Below are positions 31,461 through 41,480 of a stretch of DNA of 44,198 nt, in pieces; position 1 is the stretch's first letter, and each line of letters begins with the position of its first letter. The notes beneath the pieces are model-generated. The model was not told the origin of the DNA and did not search any database. It saw only the letters and a program-made list of their open reading frames with translations. The translations under genes were made by a program, and so were the position numbers. Source of the DNA: Escherichia phage vB_EcoS-EE09; sequence record OR756193.1. The stretch is one strand, 5' to 3'.

Positions 31461-31479
31461 TTTGTTTGGTCCTCTCGTT

Positions 31480-31530
31480 GGTGTGCAACCAATCTAGCAG
31501 GGTGCCAGGCTGAATGCAACCAATATTAAT
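31480..31530 (-). promoter_or_regulatory. promoter-like region with two ATTGGTTGCA motifs (reverse strand)
   Basis: Two exact copies about 31 bp apart, 25-55 bp upstream of the start at 31460; the proximal copy extends to ATTGGTTGCACACCAAC, identical to the motif at 20832. Confidence 0.45.
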
Positions 31531-31669
31531 CATGCGTATGAAAAAGTTGATCGCTATCTGCTGTGGCTGCAAACTGCATTTTTCACTCAGCATAATACAA
31601 CCCGCATTGGTTGCCTAGTTCATCCGCGACCGCACTTCGCATCATGCTGCCGTGTATTTTGCAATCCCC

Positions 31670-31800
31670 GGATTTTATTCAGTCTCAGACGAGGGGGGCC
31701 GTTGACCCCCGTCTAGTCTGAAAGACTGGGGTGCTGTCCCGCTTTGTCCCGCCTAGTGTTTGTCCCGCTTTTTGTCCCGTTTGGTTTATGCAATAAAACT
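31670..31800. repeat. second copy of the hairpin plus GTCCCGC-array element
   Basis: TTATTCAGTCTCAGACGAGGGGGGCCGTTGACCCCCGTCTAGTCTGAAAGACTGG...GTCCCGCTTTGTCCCGCC...GTTTGGTTTATGCA matches the copy at about 15095-15285 apart from a roughly 50-bp internal deletion and a few substitutions. Confidence 0.7.
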
Positions 31801-31829
31801 GCATAACTATTCATCTCATCTACACTACA

Positions 31830-31930
31830 CGGCAACCAATACGACCAGATAAAAACACGCAAAATGGCAACCAATACGCGCACAAATTAATCGTCTAGCG
31901 ATATGGGAATTCCCATATCGGCAACCAATG
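31830..31930. repeat. three iteron-like GGCAACCAAT(A/G)CG repeats plus a 22-bp perfect palindrome
   Basis: Direct repeats cGGCAACCAATACGa, tGGCAACCAATACGc, cGGCAACCAATGCGc; palindrome CGATATGGGAATTCCCATATCG at about 31899-31920; AT-rich flank; directly 3' of the primase-helicase gene. Confidence 0.6.
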
Positions 31931-31940
31931 CGCGCAAAAT

Positions 31941-34282
31941 TTAATCTTTCAGGTCATCATCGGTCGCCGAAAGCGTGATGGGTATATTTGTTTTGATGAC
32001 GATATTCGACGACCCATAGATGGCCCCGGTGTGCGGATCTGTATAAAAACCTAGCACGCCGCGATCCACCATATCGTCTATTGCCTTCGTCGATGTGCCA
32101 CCTTTTGCCAATCCCGCCTGGCGGACGATTGCCGATTTACTGAATCCGGTATGGTCCGGGTTATCTTCCATCAGTTTTTCCAGTGCCGCATAAAGCACTT
32201 TCTCTTTTTCGTTGCGCGGCCCCGCGGCATTTTCTTCCTTAACTGCGGCTTTGCCAGCGGCCTTTGCCTGCTCAATAGCGAACGGTGCCAGGGCGACCGG
32301 TACGAGATACAGAGTCTCGTCGCGTGGCGTGGACGCGATCGGCTTGACGTCCCAACCGGCAACCACATCGCCGAAGTCAGGCCCGGTGCTGGTGGACTGG
32401 TGCGATTCGAACGCCTCGGACTTGCGGAGATCCACCTTAACCTTGCACTTGAGCAGGACGAATCCGCGCGGCGCTTGCTTGATGCCGTTACGTGCCTTTT
32501 CGTGATACAGGTTCAATTGGCCTGGTTGATTGTCGTCCGGTTGCTCCAGGAAGAACGCAGAATCAACAGCACCATGCAGCGCGCCGGACCCGCGTGGGGA
32601 TCTGCTGCCGTTTGCACCCTTCGCCGGGTGGTGGATGACGCCCGCACTGCCGCCTGTATTTTCCGCGATGGCCTTCAGCGCCTTGACCACTTCGCCCATA
32701 TCGCTGGCGTTGTTCTCGTCGAACGGTTTAGCATCGGCGGACCGCAGCGCAACAGTCTGGTTGAGTGAGTCGAACGCCACCAGGCCAACCGGTTCGCCGT
32801 TAGCGGTGCGGTTGATAAAGCTGATAACTTCACGCAAGCCGGATTTGCTGGTGATATCCCAGCCGCGAGATTGCAGGTCGATAATGTGCAGCTTGTCCAG
32901 GTCGTGCTCATATTTGATCTGCAATGCTTCCTTACGCTGGTTGGAGGCTTCGCCACCTTCCGCGTCGAAATAGAAGCAATGAGACTGGACGACCTTCGCA
33001 CCACCGAACGGGATCCCCGCGGCAACCGCACCCATTTGGCCCAGCACGTAGAACGATTTACCGATGTTCGATTCGCCAGCCATATACCAGGTCGATTTGA
33101 AGTTGACCAGGCCTTCTATGATCGGGTCGTGCTTACTGAACAGTGCGACCGGTTCGTTATCCAGGTCAGCGTCGGTACATACGCCGTACTCGTCGCCGTC
33201 TCCGACCGCATCAACGATATGCGCATAGCACGATTCCACTTCCTCGTCGTCCAGTCCTGGGAGGATGGCGGCGATTTGCTTACGTGACATGTTGTGCGGT
33301 TCGACGTTCAGGTGGTCCGGGATCCCGATAAGACGTAGCGCCAGGTGCTGGTGTCTGTTCAGTTCCGAGCAACACTCGTTGCCGGTGTGCATACACTTGA
33401 AACGGATCTCGCCATCCTTAACCATGATAGCGGTGGACCCTTCGCCGCTGTGCAGGTGTTCGTTCGGGCATGGCACTTCATAACCACGACCGGACGACAG
33501 CGGTTCGAATCCTGCCTGGAAGCACCAGTCCAGAATTCCGTCCGTTACGCCAGCGTCGCCCTGGGTCAGTTCGCGGCGCACTTCCTCTTTTTCCACTCCC
33601 CGCTTATCAGCCAGGCGGAGCAGACGACGGACGCGGGCGCGCTTGCCATAGTGGCACTTAATAACAGACTGCTGGTGTGGCAGGTACATCAGGCGGTTTG
33701 TGTCTTTCGTGCAGTCGTCGAAGTCCACATCGGACAAACCAAGTTGGTGTAATAGCGCATACTGGACGCGGCCCAGGTCTTCCGCCGGTACAGGCTTGTC
33801 GGTCAACACCAGGAAACGGGCGCAACGCGTGGCGCATACTGGACGCGGCCCAGGTCTTCCGCCGGTACAGGCTTGTCGGTCAACACCAGGAAACGGGCGC
33901 AACGCGTGCCGCCTTTCAGCGGGTGGCGGTCGCCGGTTGTGGTGTGAAATACGTGTTCCAGCCCCGCGTCAATGAACGCCTTACGGCAGCGGCGTAGGGT
34001 GCGGGTGTCGGTACGGTCGATATCAAAGAACAGGATCGAGCGGTCCACCGCACTGGTCTTACGACGCAATCCGTCACTGGTATACGCCACGATGCCATCG
34101 GCCTTACGCTTGCGGCGCGCATACTCGGCTTTATCTTCCGTCTTATTGATATGCACCGAGGAGATTTCTTTCGCATCATTGATAAATTCGAAAAATTCAT
34201 CGGTGGTCATCTGGAAGTTTTCCGCCCTGGCTTTTTCGCCTTTTTTAGCGGGTCTTGTTACAGCGAATTTAATTAAGCTCAT
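31941..34282 (-). pseudogene. DNA primase-helicase (AEP/PrimPol-like N-domain plus P-loop NTPase), frame broken by a 77-bp tandem duplication
   Basis: N-terminal ORF (33803-34282) has the AEP motif LFFDIDR and a conserved His; the C-terminal ORF (31941-33902) has a Cys/His cluster and Walker A GESNIGKS; both contain TRCARFLVLTDKPVPAEDLGRVQYA; removing one 77-bp copy gives a single 2265-nt (754-codon) frame. Confidence 0.7.
33755..33908. repeat. perfect 77-bp tandem direct duplication (two copies)
   Basis: 33755-33831 is identical to 33832-33908 (GCGCATACTGGACGCGGCCCAGGTCTTCCGCCGGTACAGGCTTGTCGGTCAACACCAGGAAACGGGCGCAACGCGTG). Confidence 0.9.
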
Positions 34283-34292
34283 TGCCGTGGCC

Positions 34293-34622
34293 TTACTTAG
34301 AAGTTTTATTATTGCGTACCCAGGAGCGCACTGTGCTCTGATTAATTCCGGTCAACTCGGCAATCATCGCCCAGGATTTGCCCTCGGCGCGCAAACGGAT
34401 AACCTGTTTTTTGTATTCTTCCATTTCTTCATTGTGCTTTTGCAGCTTGCTTGCTGCAGTACCGTTGAGTAATTCCAGCTTCGCGCGCAATTCTTTTTCG
34501 GTAAGTCGCAGACGTTCGATTTCAAATAGCACCGCACCCACGGCATCGGTATACGCCCATGACCGGCTTGTTTCACTGCTAACAGTCTTCGTTAACATTT
34601 CGATTGCGTCGTTTACATTCAT
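34293..34622 (-). CDS. small HTH DNA-binding protein (109 aa), putative regulator
   Basis: Coiled-coil-like N-terminus and C-terminal helix-turn-helix-like KSWAMIAELTGINQSTVRSWV; first gene of the leftward unit. Confidence 0.55.
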   Translation of the reverse strand: MNVNDAIEMLTKTVSSETSRSWAYTDAVGAVLFEIERLRLTEKELRAKLELLNGTAASKLQKHNEEMEEYKKQVIRLRAEGKSWAMIAELTGINQSTVRSWVRNNKTSK

Positions 34623-34653
34623 TGTTCTGTCCCCAGTTGGTTAATGACCAATG

Positions 34654-34682
34654 AAACTACACCTAAAACCGCAAGGTGTCAA
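34654..34682 (-). promoter_or_regulatory. candidate leftward sigma70 promoter with overlapping palindromic operator
   Basis: On the minus strand: TTGACA, 17-nt spacer, TAGTTT; near-palindrome TTGGTTAATGACCAA (about 34637-34651) lies between the predicted start site and the RBS of the HTH gene. Confidence 0.4.
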
Positions 34683-34753
34683 ATCCTTTGGATATTGAAA
34701 CGGGCGCGCACGCGTGTAATAATAATTCCCGTCTCATTGTCTCTTATTGGTTA

Positions 34754-34787
34754 GCGCCGTCGCATTTTGCCTCGGCGCTTTTTTTTT
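34754..34787 (+). terminator. plus-strand rho-independent terminator inside the divergent control region
   Basis: GCGCCG-13 nt loop-CGGCGC hairpin followed by a T9 run; no annotated plus-strand gene upstream. Confidence 0.6.
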
Positions 34788-34798
34788 GAAATTAGTTG

Positions 34799-34828
34799 TT
34801 GACACCCATCCTGCAACCAATCTATTAT
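34799..34828 (+). promoter_or_regulatory. candidate strong rightward sigma70 early promoter
   Basis: Consensus -35 TTGACA, 18-nt spacer containing TGCAACCAAT, -10 TATTAT; about 200 bp upstream of the first rightward gene. Confidence 0.5.
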
Positions 34829-35024
34829 TCACTCCGTCGACAGGATGCAGGACGCAAACTGGAGAGGGGCAACGCAGGGGCCGGATCGAAGTGTCAGGAT
34901 TCCCAACCGTGATTATATAACCTGGTCCACTACCCGAACGGGAGAACGCGCAACCGGGCAATATGTTAAGGCCACCGACGAAGTTAACTGCCGACATCTA
35001 AACTTAACCAATCGGAGATATACC

Positions 35025-35543
35025 ATGTTTGAGCAAATCGTAAACCTGATCACTCGCGGCGTAGTAGCACTGGAAACCATCGCTAAACATTATGAAACCG
35101 TTGGCGCTGCCGTTGGTAAGCAGGAAGACAAGAAGCCGTCTAAGGCCAAAAAAGAAGTTGTCGAAGATGACGACGATGAAGTCGAAGACGAAAAACCGGC
35201 TAAATCTAAAAAAGCCCCGGCGAAAGGTAAATCCAAAAAAGAAGTCGTAGAAGATGACGACGACGAGGATGCCGAAGATGAAAAACCGGCTAAGTCTAAA
35301 AAAGCACCGGCGAAAGGCAAAGGTAAGAAAGATGCCGATCCGCTGGCGGAGATGCGCGACGAAATCAAACAGTATGCCGCGATTATCGCCGGTGGCGATG
35401 ACGACGATGCGAACGACGAATTCGACGACCTGCTGGAATCGTTCGAGATCAAATCAATCGCCAAGCTGGAAGATGACGACGTCGAAGACTTCCACAAAGA
35501 GCTAAAAGAAATCGTCGAAACCTATTTCGAACTGGAAGATTAA
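35025..35543 (+). CDS. highly charged repeat protein (172 aa), first gene of the rightward early operon
   Basis: ORF track trimmed to the ATG with RBS GGAGA 6 nt upstream; two tandem ~29-aa repeats KKEVVEDDDDE..EDEKPAKSKKAPAKGK; strongly acidic C-terminal half. Confidence 0.65.
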   Translation: MFEQIVNLITRGVVALETIAKHYETVGAAVGKQEDKKPSKAKKEVVEDDDDEVEDEKPAKSKKAPAKGKSKKEVVEDDDDEDAEDEKPAKSKKAPAKGKGKKDADPLAEMRDEIKQYAAIIAGGDDDDANDEFDDLLESFEIKSIAKLEDDDVEDFHKELKEIVETYFELED

Positions 35544-35591
35544 TATATTCCGGCCCGCTAATCTGCGGGCCTATTTTTAGAGGACGAGACA

Positions 35592-35843
35592 ATGGCACGC
35601 TTCACGCTAATCGAGGCGGTGGACTCCCGCGACCAGCGCCCGTACTATTGGCTATTCGAACGCATCGGCAGCTTTCAGTCACGCGTTGCCGTAATAGATA
35701 AACGCCGTAACACCCCCGCGCAAATTAAGCGCACCACCTTTACTAACCCCGACTTTTATATTTGGGCGGATTCCAATCTGGAATATGTTCGCTTCGCAGT
35801 TGCATCCGAAGCAAAAACAATTGACCGCTGGGAGACAAAATAA
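35592..35843 (+). CDS. hypothetical protein (83 aa)
   Basis: ORF track; RBS GAGGA upstream of ATG. Confidence 0.55.
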   Translation: MARFTLIEAVDSRDQRPYYWLFERIGSFQSRVAVIDKRRNTPAQIKRTTFTNPDFYIWADSNLEYVRFAVASEAKTIDRWETK

Positions 35844-41457: not shown

Positions 41458-41480
41458 GGCGGGCTTGTCCCGCCATTTTT
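41458..41480 (+). terminator. rho-independent terminator
   Basis: GGCGGG-cttgt-CCCGCC hairpin followed by ATTTTT. Confidence 0.6.

Follow-up and report, generated by a model that had tools for sequence, protein, structure and literature searches.

What occupies the 402-bp gap that separates a leftward regulator gene from a rightward gene in Escherichia phage vB_EcoS-EE09, and that most Dhillonvirus records leave without annotation? The window analyzed here is a stretch of 44,198 nucleotides (nt) of sequence record OR756193.1, and the gap (34623-35024) is flanked by a leftward gene for a 109-amino-acid (aa) protein (34293-34622) and a rightward gene that begins with the ATG at 35025. An earlier note, made from the letters alone, had read the gap as a divergent control region, and this reading was borne out, as the elements lie within a base or two of where the note had placed them and are conserved. 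The note was silent, however, on the 195-nt leader that follows the rightward promoter (P-right), which holds the most significant feature of the region. Within this leader we describe a structured RNA domain of 160 nt and eight helices (Table 1). The picture that we propose is a hub of three promoters in which the leader RNA belongs to a horizontally moved family and acts in cis, and we give that picture as a whole about an even chance of being right. The window is itself a Dhillonvirus (an HK578-like E. coli siphophage), and its positions 34200-35600 are 95-96% identical to about 140 Dhillonvirus genomes, among them Gluttony_ev152, SO-1, and PTXU06.

The helices of the domain (P1 to P8) were derived by hand. 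A covariance model was built from ten well-aligned Jilinvirus-like copies and then aligned the remaining sequences; in MAFFT alignments, even when artificial tags were added to the ends, P1 and P7 lost their register. The model has a single match in the window, on the plus strand only (34839-34992, 98.6 bits, E = 1.7e-17). It matches every carrier locus once and has no match in Envy, rolling, Ioannina, CHD5UKE2, or T1. Among 35 distinct sequences in the model-fitted alignment, standard pairs fill 94.3% of cells, compared with 30-41% when the partners are slid by 1-3 columns, and both sides have changed in 21 of the 42 pairs. The covariation score is 0.369 against 0.02-0.07 in the slid controls, and none of 500 column shuffles reached the observed values. 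Most of the covariation falls in P1, P7, and P8, while P5 never varies and so is not probed by the pair count. Dhillonvirus P1 rows were clipped or misaligned in the model alignment, and P1 was tabulated by hand; its two strands occur in 12 different combinations, drawn from four sequence families that are unrelated, with 5-8 of its 8 positions paired. RNAalifold recovers P2 to P8 de novo from the same alignment, and the comparative structure of the window copy has a predicted energy of -40.6 kcal/mol against -41.1 kcal/mol for the minimum free energy (MFE) fold. Invariant G-U pairs in P6 fix the strand as plus. A single-sequence fold of the leader is no more stable than those of shuffled sequences (z = +1.4), so the domain is revealed by comparison only and would be missed by stability alone. 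On this comparative evidence, the leader domain is a covarying, plus-strand structured RNA.

The domain spans 153-160 nt with eight helices and two branch points, and its near-invariant core comprises the GGAGA/GACGAA internal loop, P5-P6, CACU, and AGAACGC. A possible extra helix (34915-18/34963-66), to which no statistics were applied, is compatible with all three lineage types. Rfam 15 gave no match at gathering score in the whole window and, at E <= 10, none overlapping 34836-34995 on the plus strand; ARAGORN reported 0 tRNA or tmRNA genes in the window. A text search of the literature for the core sequence returned nothing relevant, with one large survey of candidate viral RNAs outside the comparison. 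Several likenesses were considered and set aside. These were, by eye, a kink-turn in the GGAGA/GACGAA loop and a resemblance to 5S and 4.5S RNA, against which stood a misfit in geometry and the lack of any model match. Sequestration of the Shine-Dalgarno (SD) sequence by a 5' CUCCG, seen in the MFE fold of the leader, was rejected, as transcription is expected to start downstream of those bases.

The same stretch can also be read as protein, namely as an N-terminal extension of the first rightward gene (gene 1) within a 232-aa open reading frame (ORF, 34845-35543). This ORF is indeed open and in frame in the window, and several GenBank records place a "hypothetical protein" there. Variable sites from 34845 onward, however, fall 5/3/6 by codon position, with no third-position bias. 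The frame is broken in 4 of 14 distinct Dhillonvirus versions and interrupted by in-frame stops in every other lineage, no SD precedes 34845, the compensatory changes fit helices rather than codons, and Envy makes the same protein from the equivalent of the 35025 start. We therefore practically discount a protein-coding role, and by these substitution patterns the leader domain is non-coding.

A blastn search with the gap showed that 34847-34912 is 86-94% identical to unannotated DNA in unrelated phages, namely Jilinvirus Arya, Serratia phage MQ-4, and Alux-21, as well as the Tempevirinae slyngel, tunus, swan01, PHB17, and KMI8. When the Arya copy was used as the query, 171 phage records were found to carry the domain. 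These carriers come from three unrelated groups (Dhillonvirus, Drexlerviridae Tempevirinae, and Jilinvirus-like phages) and include workhorses of the laboratory, namely SECphi4, SECphi18, and BASEL phages such as GeorgBuechner, Oekolampad, TheodorHerzl, PaulFeyerabend, and KarlBarth. The domain had no match in 5,426 complete E. coli genomes, 72,556 plasmids, or reference bacterial genomes. Scans of IMG/VR, metagenomes, and GTDB genomes with degenerate patterns yielded few further variants, along with two chance matches; the sole "bacterial" match was a 42.8-kb contig of a metagenome-assembled genome, in which the domain is one base off the copy in Klebsiella phage IME279. Judged by these alignments, the domain represents an RNA family of phages that is as yet undescribed and has spread by horizontal transfer among enterobacterial phages unrelated to each other. 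Arya (L057, 37311-39390) has tail sheath and baseplate genes, and the domain is thus not confined to siphophages.

Presence of the domain is patchy even among close relatives. In Envy, YD-2008.s, and rolling, the match to the gap is limited to its left 222 bases, and promoter, linker, and gene are all retained in Envy, rolling, CHD5UKE2, and Ioannina, with a 10-28-nt hairpin on the same P1 foot (GUCGACAGGGCAUACCGCCCGGAC in Envy; GUCG-AAA-CGAC in Ioannina). Because natural variants carry this mini-hairpin instead, the domain is dispensable. Directly 3' of P1, ACC occurs in 11 of 15 lineage variants and (N)CCA in 8 of 15, which is reminiscent of the 3' end of a tRNA behind its acceptor stem (e.g., L005 1634-1637, L007 1636-1639, and L008 1646-1649); the window reads AUCU at 34996-34999.

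Such a distribution could point to a trans-acting decoy, made in bulk from the strongest promoter at the start of infection as a sponge for a host protein such as an RNA- or tRNA-targeting defense nuclease, CsrA, or RNase E, with the downstream mRNA incidental. Patchy presence in close relatives combined with spread among unrelated virulent phages is typical of counter-defense accessories, and the domain is absent from the bacteria, prophages, and plasmids that were searched. In addition, the P2 loop keeps CAGGAUG/AAGGAU, the motif of the CsrB repeats, and the (N)CCA described above, with its likeness to a tRNA 3' end, would also suit an accessory function. Against a decoy, the domain has no terminator or conserved processing site that would release it from the message, neither ARAGORN nor the Rfam models for tRNA and tmRNA find a match, and the GGA motif accounts for little of the conserved core. 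We consider this explanation unlikely.

The position of the domain with respect to its promoter is fixed. In the window, it begins about 7 nt after the P-right -10 hexamer, and each of the 30 distinct upstream regions has a -10-like hexamer whose end lies 7-11 nt ahead of P1. A good -35 accompanies it in Dhillonvirus and in most Jilinvirus-like phages, whereas that of Tempevirinae is poor. This spacing implies that the transcript would start at P1 or within about 4 nt of it in at least two of the three lineages. The rightward promoter had been proposed in the earlier note as near-consensus, and with 11 of 12 consensus positions it was confirmed; it is kept in all Dhillonviruses, whether the leader RNA is present or not. 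Downstream of the domain, each lineage has a G-poor linker of 26-70 nt, an SD, and then unrelated small-protein genes. The linkers are unrelated between lineages, although the window linker recurs in relatives that have no RNA domain, and the lineages have neither a terminator nor an SD-pairing platform in common. In MQ-4 (L009, about 1655-1680) and Alux-21 (L008, about 1660-1682), the domain is followed, ahead of the ribosome-binding site, by an additional G+C-rich hairpin that has no U tract.

Two classes of functional RNA were weighed against this context. The junction of many helices closed by P1, its many invariant unpaired nucleotides, its placement in a 5' untranslated region (UTR), and its support from covariation would all suit a riboswitch aptamer that tunes the operon to a metabolite, ion, or signaling nucleotide. 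Yet a conserved expression platform is missing, as no terminator follows, the linkers are unrelated, and the SD lies at least 19 nt beyond P1 and is unpaired; the downstream genes also share no pathway. For these reasons, a riboswitch appears quite improbable. Small ribozymes without an assigned role are common in phages, and the conserved junction core would be in keeping with a new class of self-cleaving ribozyme that shortens the transcript at its 5' end or cuts the domain away from the mRNA. This we regard as very improbable, since no Rfam ribozyme family matches and no candidate cleavage site is conserved across Dhillonvirus and the other lineages.

From the fold, position, and distribution of the domain, we infer a mechanism in cis. 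P-right would start at or beside G34836, and the nascent RNA would thus open with the eight-helix domain. P1 would then pair the triphosphate 5' end and protect the message from 5'-end-dependent decay, and the simple hairpin of relatives without the domain would protect the 5' end likewise. The near-invariant core may be read by a putative host component conserved across Enterobacterales, and this recognition would raise the yield of the first transcription unit. We hold this mechanism, a cis-acting 5' leader in which P1 buries the 5' end while the core engages a host factor, tentatively and at slightly less than an even chance. A whole-genome tblastn comparison of the window with Arya found the endolysin as the only common protein, and hence no phage protein that co-occurs across the carrier lineages; any partner should accordingly be host-encoded, a small molecule, or absent.

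Several points weigh against the proposed leader mechanism. Protection of a 5' end needs a hairpin only, which leaves the conserved 150-nt core unaccounted for. Tempevirinae conserve only a -10-like CATAAT upstream, and in swan01 the nearest consensus promoter is two genes upstream, so to judge by these sequences the domain may be internal to a longer transcript in that group. The alignment used for the pair count was also fitted to the model, which biases it toward the structure. A bolder form of host engagement is possible though doubtful, in which the domain would be the first member of a new functional class, an RNA-only module, spread horizontally among unrelated virulent phages, that as the very first product of infection reprograms or disarms a conserved host machine without any phage protein. 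Candidate machines for such a module are RNA polymerase, the ribosome, and an RNA- or tRNA-directed immune nuclease or sensor.

RNA polymerase is also the target in a more specific alternative, in which the domain would act like the put RNAs of phage HK022 by binding the very polymerase that made it, resisting pausing and termination, and letting transcription pass the terminator at 35552 into distal genes. The domain is promoter-proximal in the same way as putL, which begins at +2 of the transcript from PL (PMC9378689). A lack of dependence on which gene lies downstream, and a core conserved across hosts that share an RNA polymerase, would likewise be expected of such an element. There is also something to read through, as the terminator after gene 1 has seven G-C pairs, the next gene lies 20 nt beyond it with no promoter between them, and a second terminator occurs at 41458. 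Envy and rolling, however, keep an identical terminator and gene order without the domain, so that domain and terminator are uncorrelated; an attempt to support antitermination by a correlation of this kind across lineages found none. In BUCT618 and Arya, the domain-led unit ends at a terminator or hairpin and a new promoter follows, and in swan01 no internal terminator was detected. The domain itself, with 160 nt and eight helices, is unlike put with its 73 nt and two stem-loops. Antitermination of this type therefore seems improbable to us, and the cis-acting leader that protects its message and engages a host factor is the reading with which we proceed.

Table 1. Features of the control region and its flanking genes, numbered from the first base of the window
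Feature	Position	Strand	Basis
Leftward gene, 109 aa, C-terminal helix-turn-helix (residues ~65-106)	34293-34622	-	ORF, Pfam, PHROG 9366
Candidate operator, 5+5 perfect inverted repeat TTGGT-TAATG-ACCAA (TTGGTTAATGACCAA)	34637-34651	.	Sequence, conservation
P-left, TTGACA (34682-34677), 17 nt, TAGTTT (34659-34654)	34654-34682	-	Sequence, conservation
P-s (third promoter), TTGAAA-17-AATAAT with TG extension	34695-34723	+	Scanner (10/12), conservation
Putative ~57-nt terminated transcript: body GUCUCAUUGUCUCUUAUUGGUUA, hairpin, U tract	34730-34787	+	Conservation, folding
Intrinsic terminator, stem AGCGCCG/CGGCGCT (34753-34779), inner GCA/UGC stem, U9	34753-34787	+	Folding, covariation
P-right, TTGACA-18-TATTAT	34799-34828	+	11/12, conserved
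ATTGGTTGCA copy in P-right spacer, ending 1 nt before the -10	34812-34821	-	10-mer scan
Structured leader RNA domain, 160 nt, eight helices	34836-34995	+	Covariance model, covariation
Helix P1	34836-43/34988-95		
Helix P2 (GGA loop)	34846-48/34854-56		
Helix P3	34858-60/34982-84		
Helix P4 (A34974 bulged)	34866-70/34971-76		
Helix P5	34872-74/34908-10		
Helix P6 (AU bulge 34899-900)	34877-86/34893-34904		
Helix P7	34921-26/34953-58		
Helix P8	34930-35/34940-44		
Linker, G-poor, A/C-rich, Shine-Dalgarno GGAGA (35014-35018)	34996-35024	+	Sequence
Gene 1, 172-aa acidic repeat protein	35025-35543	+	ORF, PHROG 3127
Strong intrinsic terminator after gene 1, 7 G-C pairs and T run	35552-35578	+	Scanner

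The left half of the gap was assessed in an alignment of 19 distinct Dhillonvirus variants, among which Ioannina has only about 85% identity in this half and still has the same layout of the control region as the window. The hexamers of the leftward promoter (P-left), the palindrome next to it, the third promoter (P-s), the 25 nt that follow it (GTCTCATTGTCTCTTATTGGTTA), and the terminator show little or no variation, unlike the spacers and the ribosome-binding region of the helix-turn-helix (HTH) gene. Promoter-like sites in the region are no more numerous than in shuffles (3 versus 2.1 +/- 1.7), so the case for real elements rests on conservation. By that measure, all of the left-half elements are under selection.

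P-left, a candidate promoter, lies where the earlier note had placed TTGACA-17-TAGTTT, with a perfect -35 and a -10 that matches the consensus at 3 of 6 positions and falls under the threshold of the promoter scanner. Both hexamers are invariant in the 19 variants, Ioannina included, while the spacer varies. P-left would drive the HTH gene and is probably repressed by the product of that gene at the palindrome. The 109-aa protein exceeds the Pfam cut-off for HTH_23 (30.7 bits), HTH_28 (28.4), and Sigma70_r4_2 (27.9), with matches confined to its C-terminal third. The note had the palindrome overlapping the promoter; the palindrome is present, but it lies 2 nt downstream of the -10, clear of both hexamers, and instead spans the expected start site from about -3 to +11. 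It is near-invariant in 18 of the 19 variants and kept in every phage with an HTH gene of the 109-aa type, so that a palindrome over the start site of its own promoter is co-inherited with the regulator. CHD5UKE2 has a different, 149-aa HTH_23 protein with 47% identity to the window protein, over the C-terminal HTH only, and there TTGGTTAATGACCAA is replaced by another palindrome, GCATACTATGC, over the -10 of the same promoter. Regulator and palindrome thus appear to have been exchanged together, as fits an operator, although linkage alone could produce the same pattern.

The autoregulation that the note had proposed is made plausible by this co-exchange, but the palindrome appears not to be a private operator, since related sites occur throughout the genome. 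The pattern TTGGT-N5-ACCAA is found exactly three times in the window, at 34637-34651, 20833, and 31478. A related 10-mer, ATTGGTTGCA, has 16 sites with at most one mismatch (1893, 1905, 4969, 20819, 20832, 30775, 31484, 31515, 31606, 31831, 31866, 31920, 34812, 41212, 44170, and 44187) where 3.0 are expected, an excess of about 5-fold that none of 100 shuffles reached. By its sequence, then, the palindrome belongs to a genome-wide site family. The 10-mer sites are often paired or form inverted repeats (e.g., 1893/1905), and three of them share the longer form TAGATTGGTTGCA. A literature search for the 10-mer string returned nothing relevant. In the Jilinvirus-like contigs L027, L032, and L037, GTTGGTTGCAA is the -35 region of the promoter that precedes the RNA domain.

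The end of the primase-helicase gene is separated from a leftward gene by a 480-bp gap (31461-31940). This gap has four direct GTCCCGC repeats (about 31735-31785), GCGCG(C/T)ATTGGTTGCC in three spaced copies, and a further three ATTGGTTGC sites, and it could represent an origin of replication or another control hub.

Back to back with P-left lies P-s, which the earlier note had read as a weaker TTGAAA, 16 nt, TAATAA; a promoter is present, but its best reading is TTGAAA-17-AATAAT with a TG extension and 10 of 12 consensus positions. It is nearly invariant across Dhillonviruses. Its spacer contains a G+C-rich perfect palindrome, CACGCGTG (34709-34716), which is almost invariant in Dhillonviruses and may be a further protein site. 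The plus-strand intrinsic terminator described in the note is present as well. Its hairpin has a predicted energy of -16.7 kcal/mol (z = -3.3; none of 200 shuffles was equally stable), and in Ioannina the stem reads ATCCCCG/CGGGGAT, with two compensatory pair changes relative to the window. The terminator scanner missed it because the apical part exceeds the loop limit.

Promoter and terminator would together define a unit of about 57 nt (34730-34787) whose body is invariant in the 19 variants, with a predicted fold that consists of a free 5' part and the terminator hairpin. The unit thus has the attributes of a small RNA, namely its own promoter, a terminator, and a conserved single-stranded body. 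Part of the body could pair with the ribosome-binding site of either flanking gene, at -17.7 kcal/mol each, compared with a window-wide background of -10.6 +/- 3.8 (about 1.9 standard deviations) and with unrelated sites that reach -25. As modeled, these predicted targets are weak. The conserved promoter and body and the covarying terminator favor a real unit of about 57 nt, which would serve as a small RNA or as an insulator that shields P-right.

To the right of the linker, gene 1 has no Pfam match for its product, and Envy and rolling, both of which are without the leader domain, have conserved its start at 35025. The protein is very acidic with internal tandem repeats (KKEVVEDDDDE...EKPAKSKKAPAKGK), and the repeat region is marked in the GenBank records of welsh and bob. 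A role as a DNA mimic or host-takeover protein would be speculation. In phage bob (L003, about 2857-2876), the terminator after gene 1 (35552-35571 in the window) has the same stem with an inverted loop, CAGATTAG versus CTAATCTG in the window. On the left, the primase-helicase gene contains a perfect 77-bp tandem duplication (33755-33831/33832-33908) that puts the gene out of frame and leaves it as two ORFs, 31941-33902 and 33803-34282. Only one copy is present in the best-matching relatives, whose matches are 77 bp shorter and in two pieces, and the duplication is either an assembly or sequencing artifact or a disabling mutation.

Large, strongly covarying RNAs without an assigned function are rare finds in E. 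coli phages. The domain is unannotated or mis-annotated as protein in the records of its carriers, and gene calls in many of them would be corrected by its recognition. The relatives with a mini-hairpin are natural near-isogenic controls, which make the role of the domain directly testable in K-12. Whether it proves to be an mRNA stabilizer, a modifier of RNA polymerase, or a blocker of defense, the outcome would be a new RNA tool for phage biology. As a structured 5' leader it is a new RNA family of a familiar kind, with a real chance of a new function.

Known systems resemble parts of this locus. Lambda OOP is a short terminated transcript in a phage control region, and the unit at 34730-34787 is likewise a tiny promoter-to-terminator unit between regulatory genes; unlike OOP, it is not antisense to a gene, and its predicted pairing to the neighboring ribosome-binding sites is weak. 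The 5'-terminal stabilizer hairpin of the ompA 5' UTR and the CsrA-protected 5' end of flhDC are simple hairpins. The leader shares with them a P1 that pairs the first transcribed bases, a plain 5' hairpin in relatives, and a GGA loop in P2, but elements of that simplicity leave unexplained a 150-nt core that is near-invariant across phage families. With riboswitch aptamers the domain has in common the P1-closed multi-helix junction, invariant unpaired bases, and location in a 5' UTR, and it differs from them in having no expression platform, no common class of downstream gene, and no Rfam match.

Among processive-antitermination RNAs, EAR belongs to the Bacillus eps operon. A larger structured RNA of this type, conAn2, comes from Gram-positive conjugative elements (PMC8191782). 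Compared by description only, the leader domain is like both in being a sizeable structured RNA near the start of an operon, but unlike them it is found outside Gram-positive elements and Bacillus eps, and conAn needs a protein partner. The closest likeness in position is to HK022 put, an RNA of about 70 nt whose two stem-loops form a V shape and which binds the zinc-binding domain of the RNA polymerase beta' subunit to suppress pausing and termination; putL pairs from nucleotide 3 and acts whatever genes follow, with no phage protein needed (PMC9378689). Whereas put belongs to lambdoid temperate phages, the domain described here is carried by virulent phages and extends over 153-160 nt and eight helices, but like put it is a cis-encoded folded RNA that directly follows a sigma-70 phage promoter and is independent of the genes that come after it.

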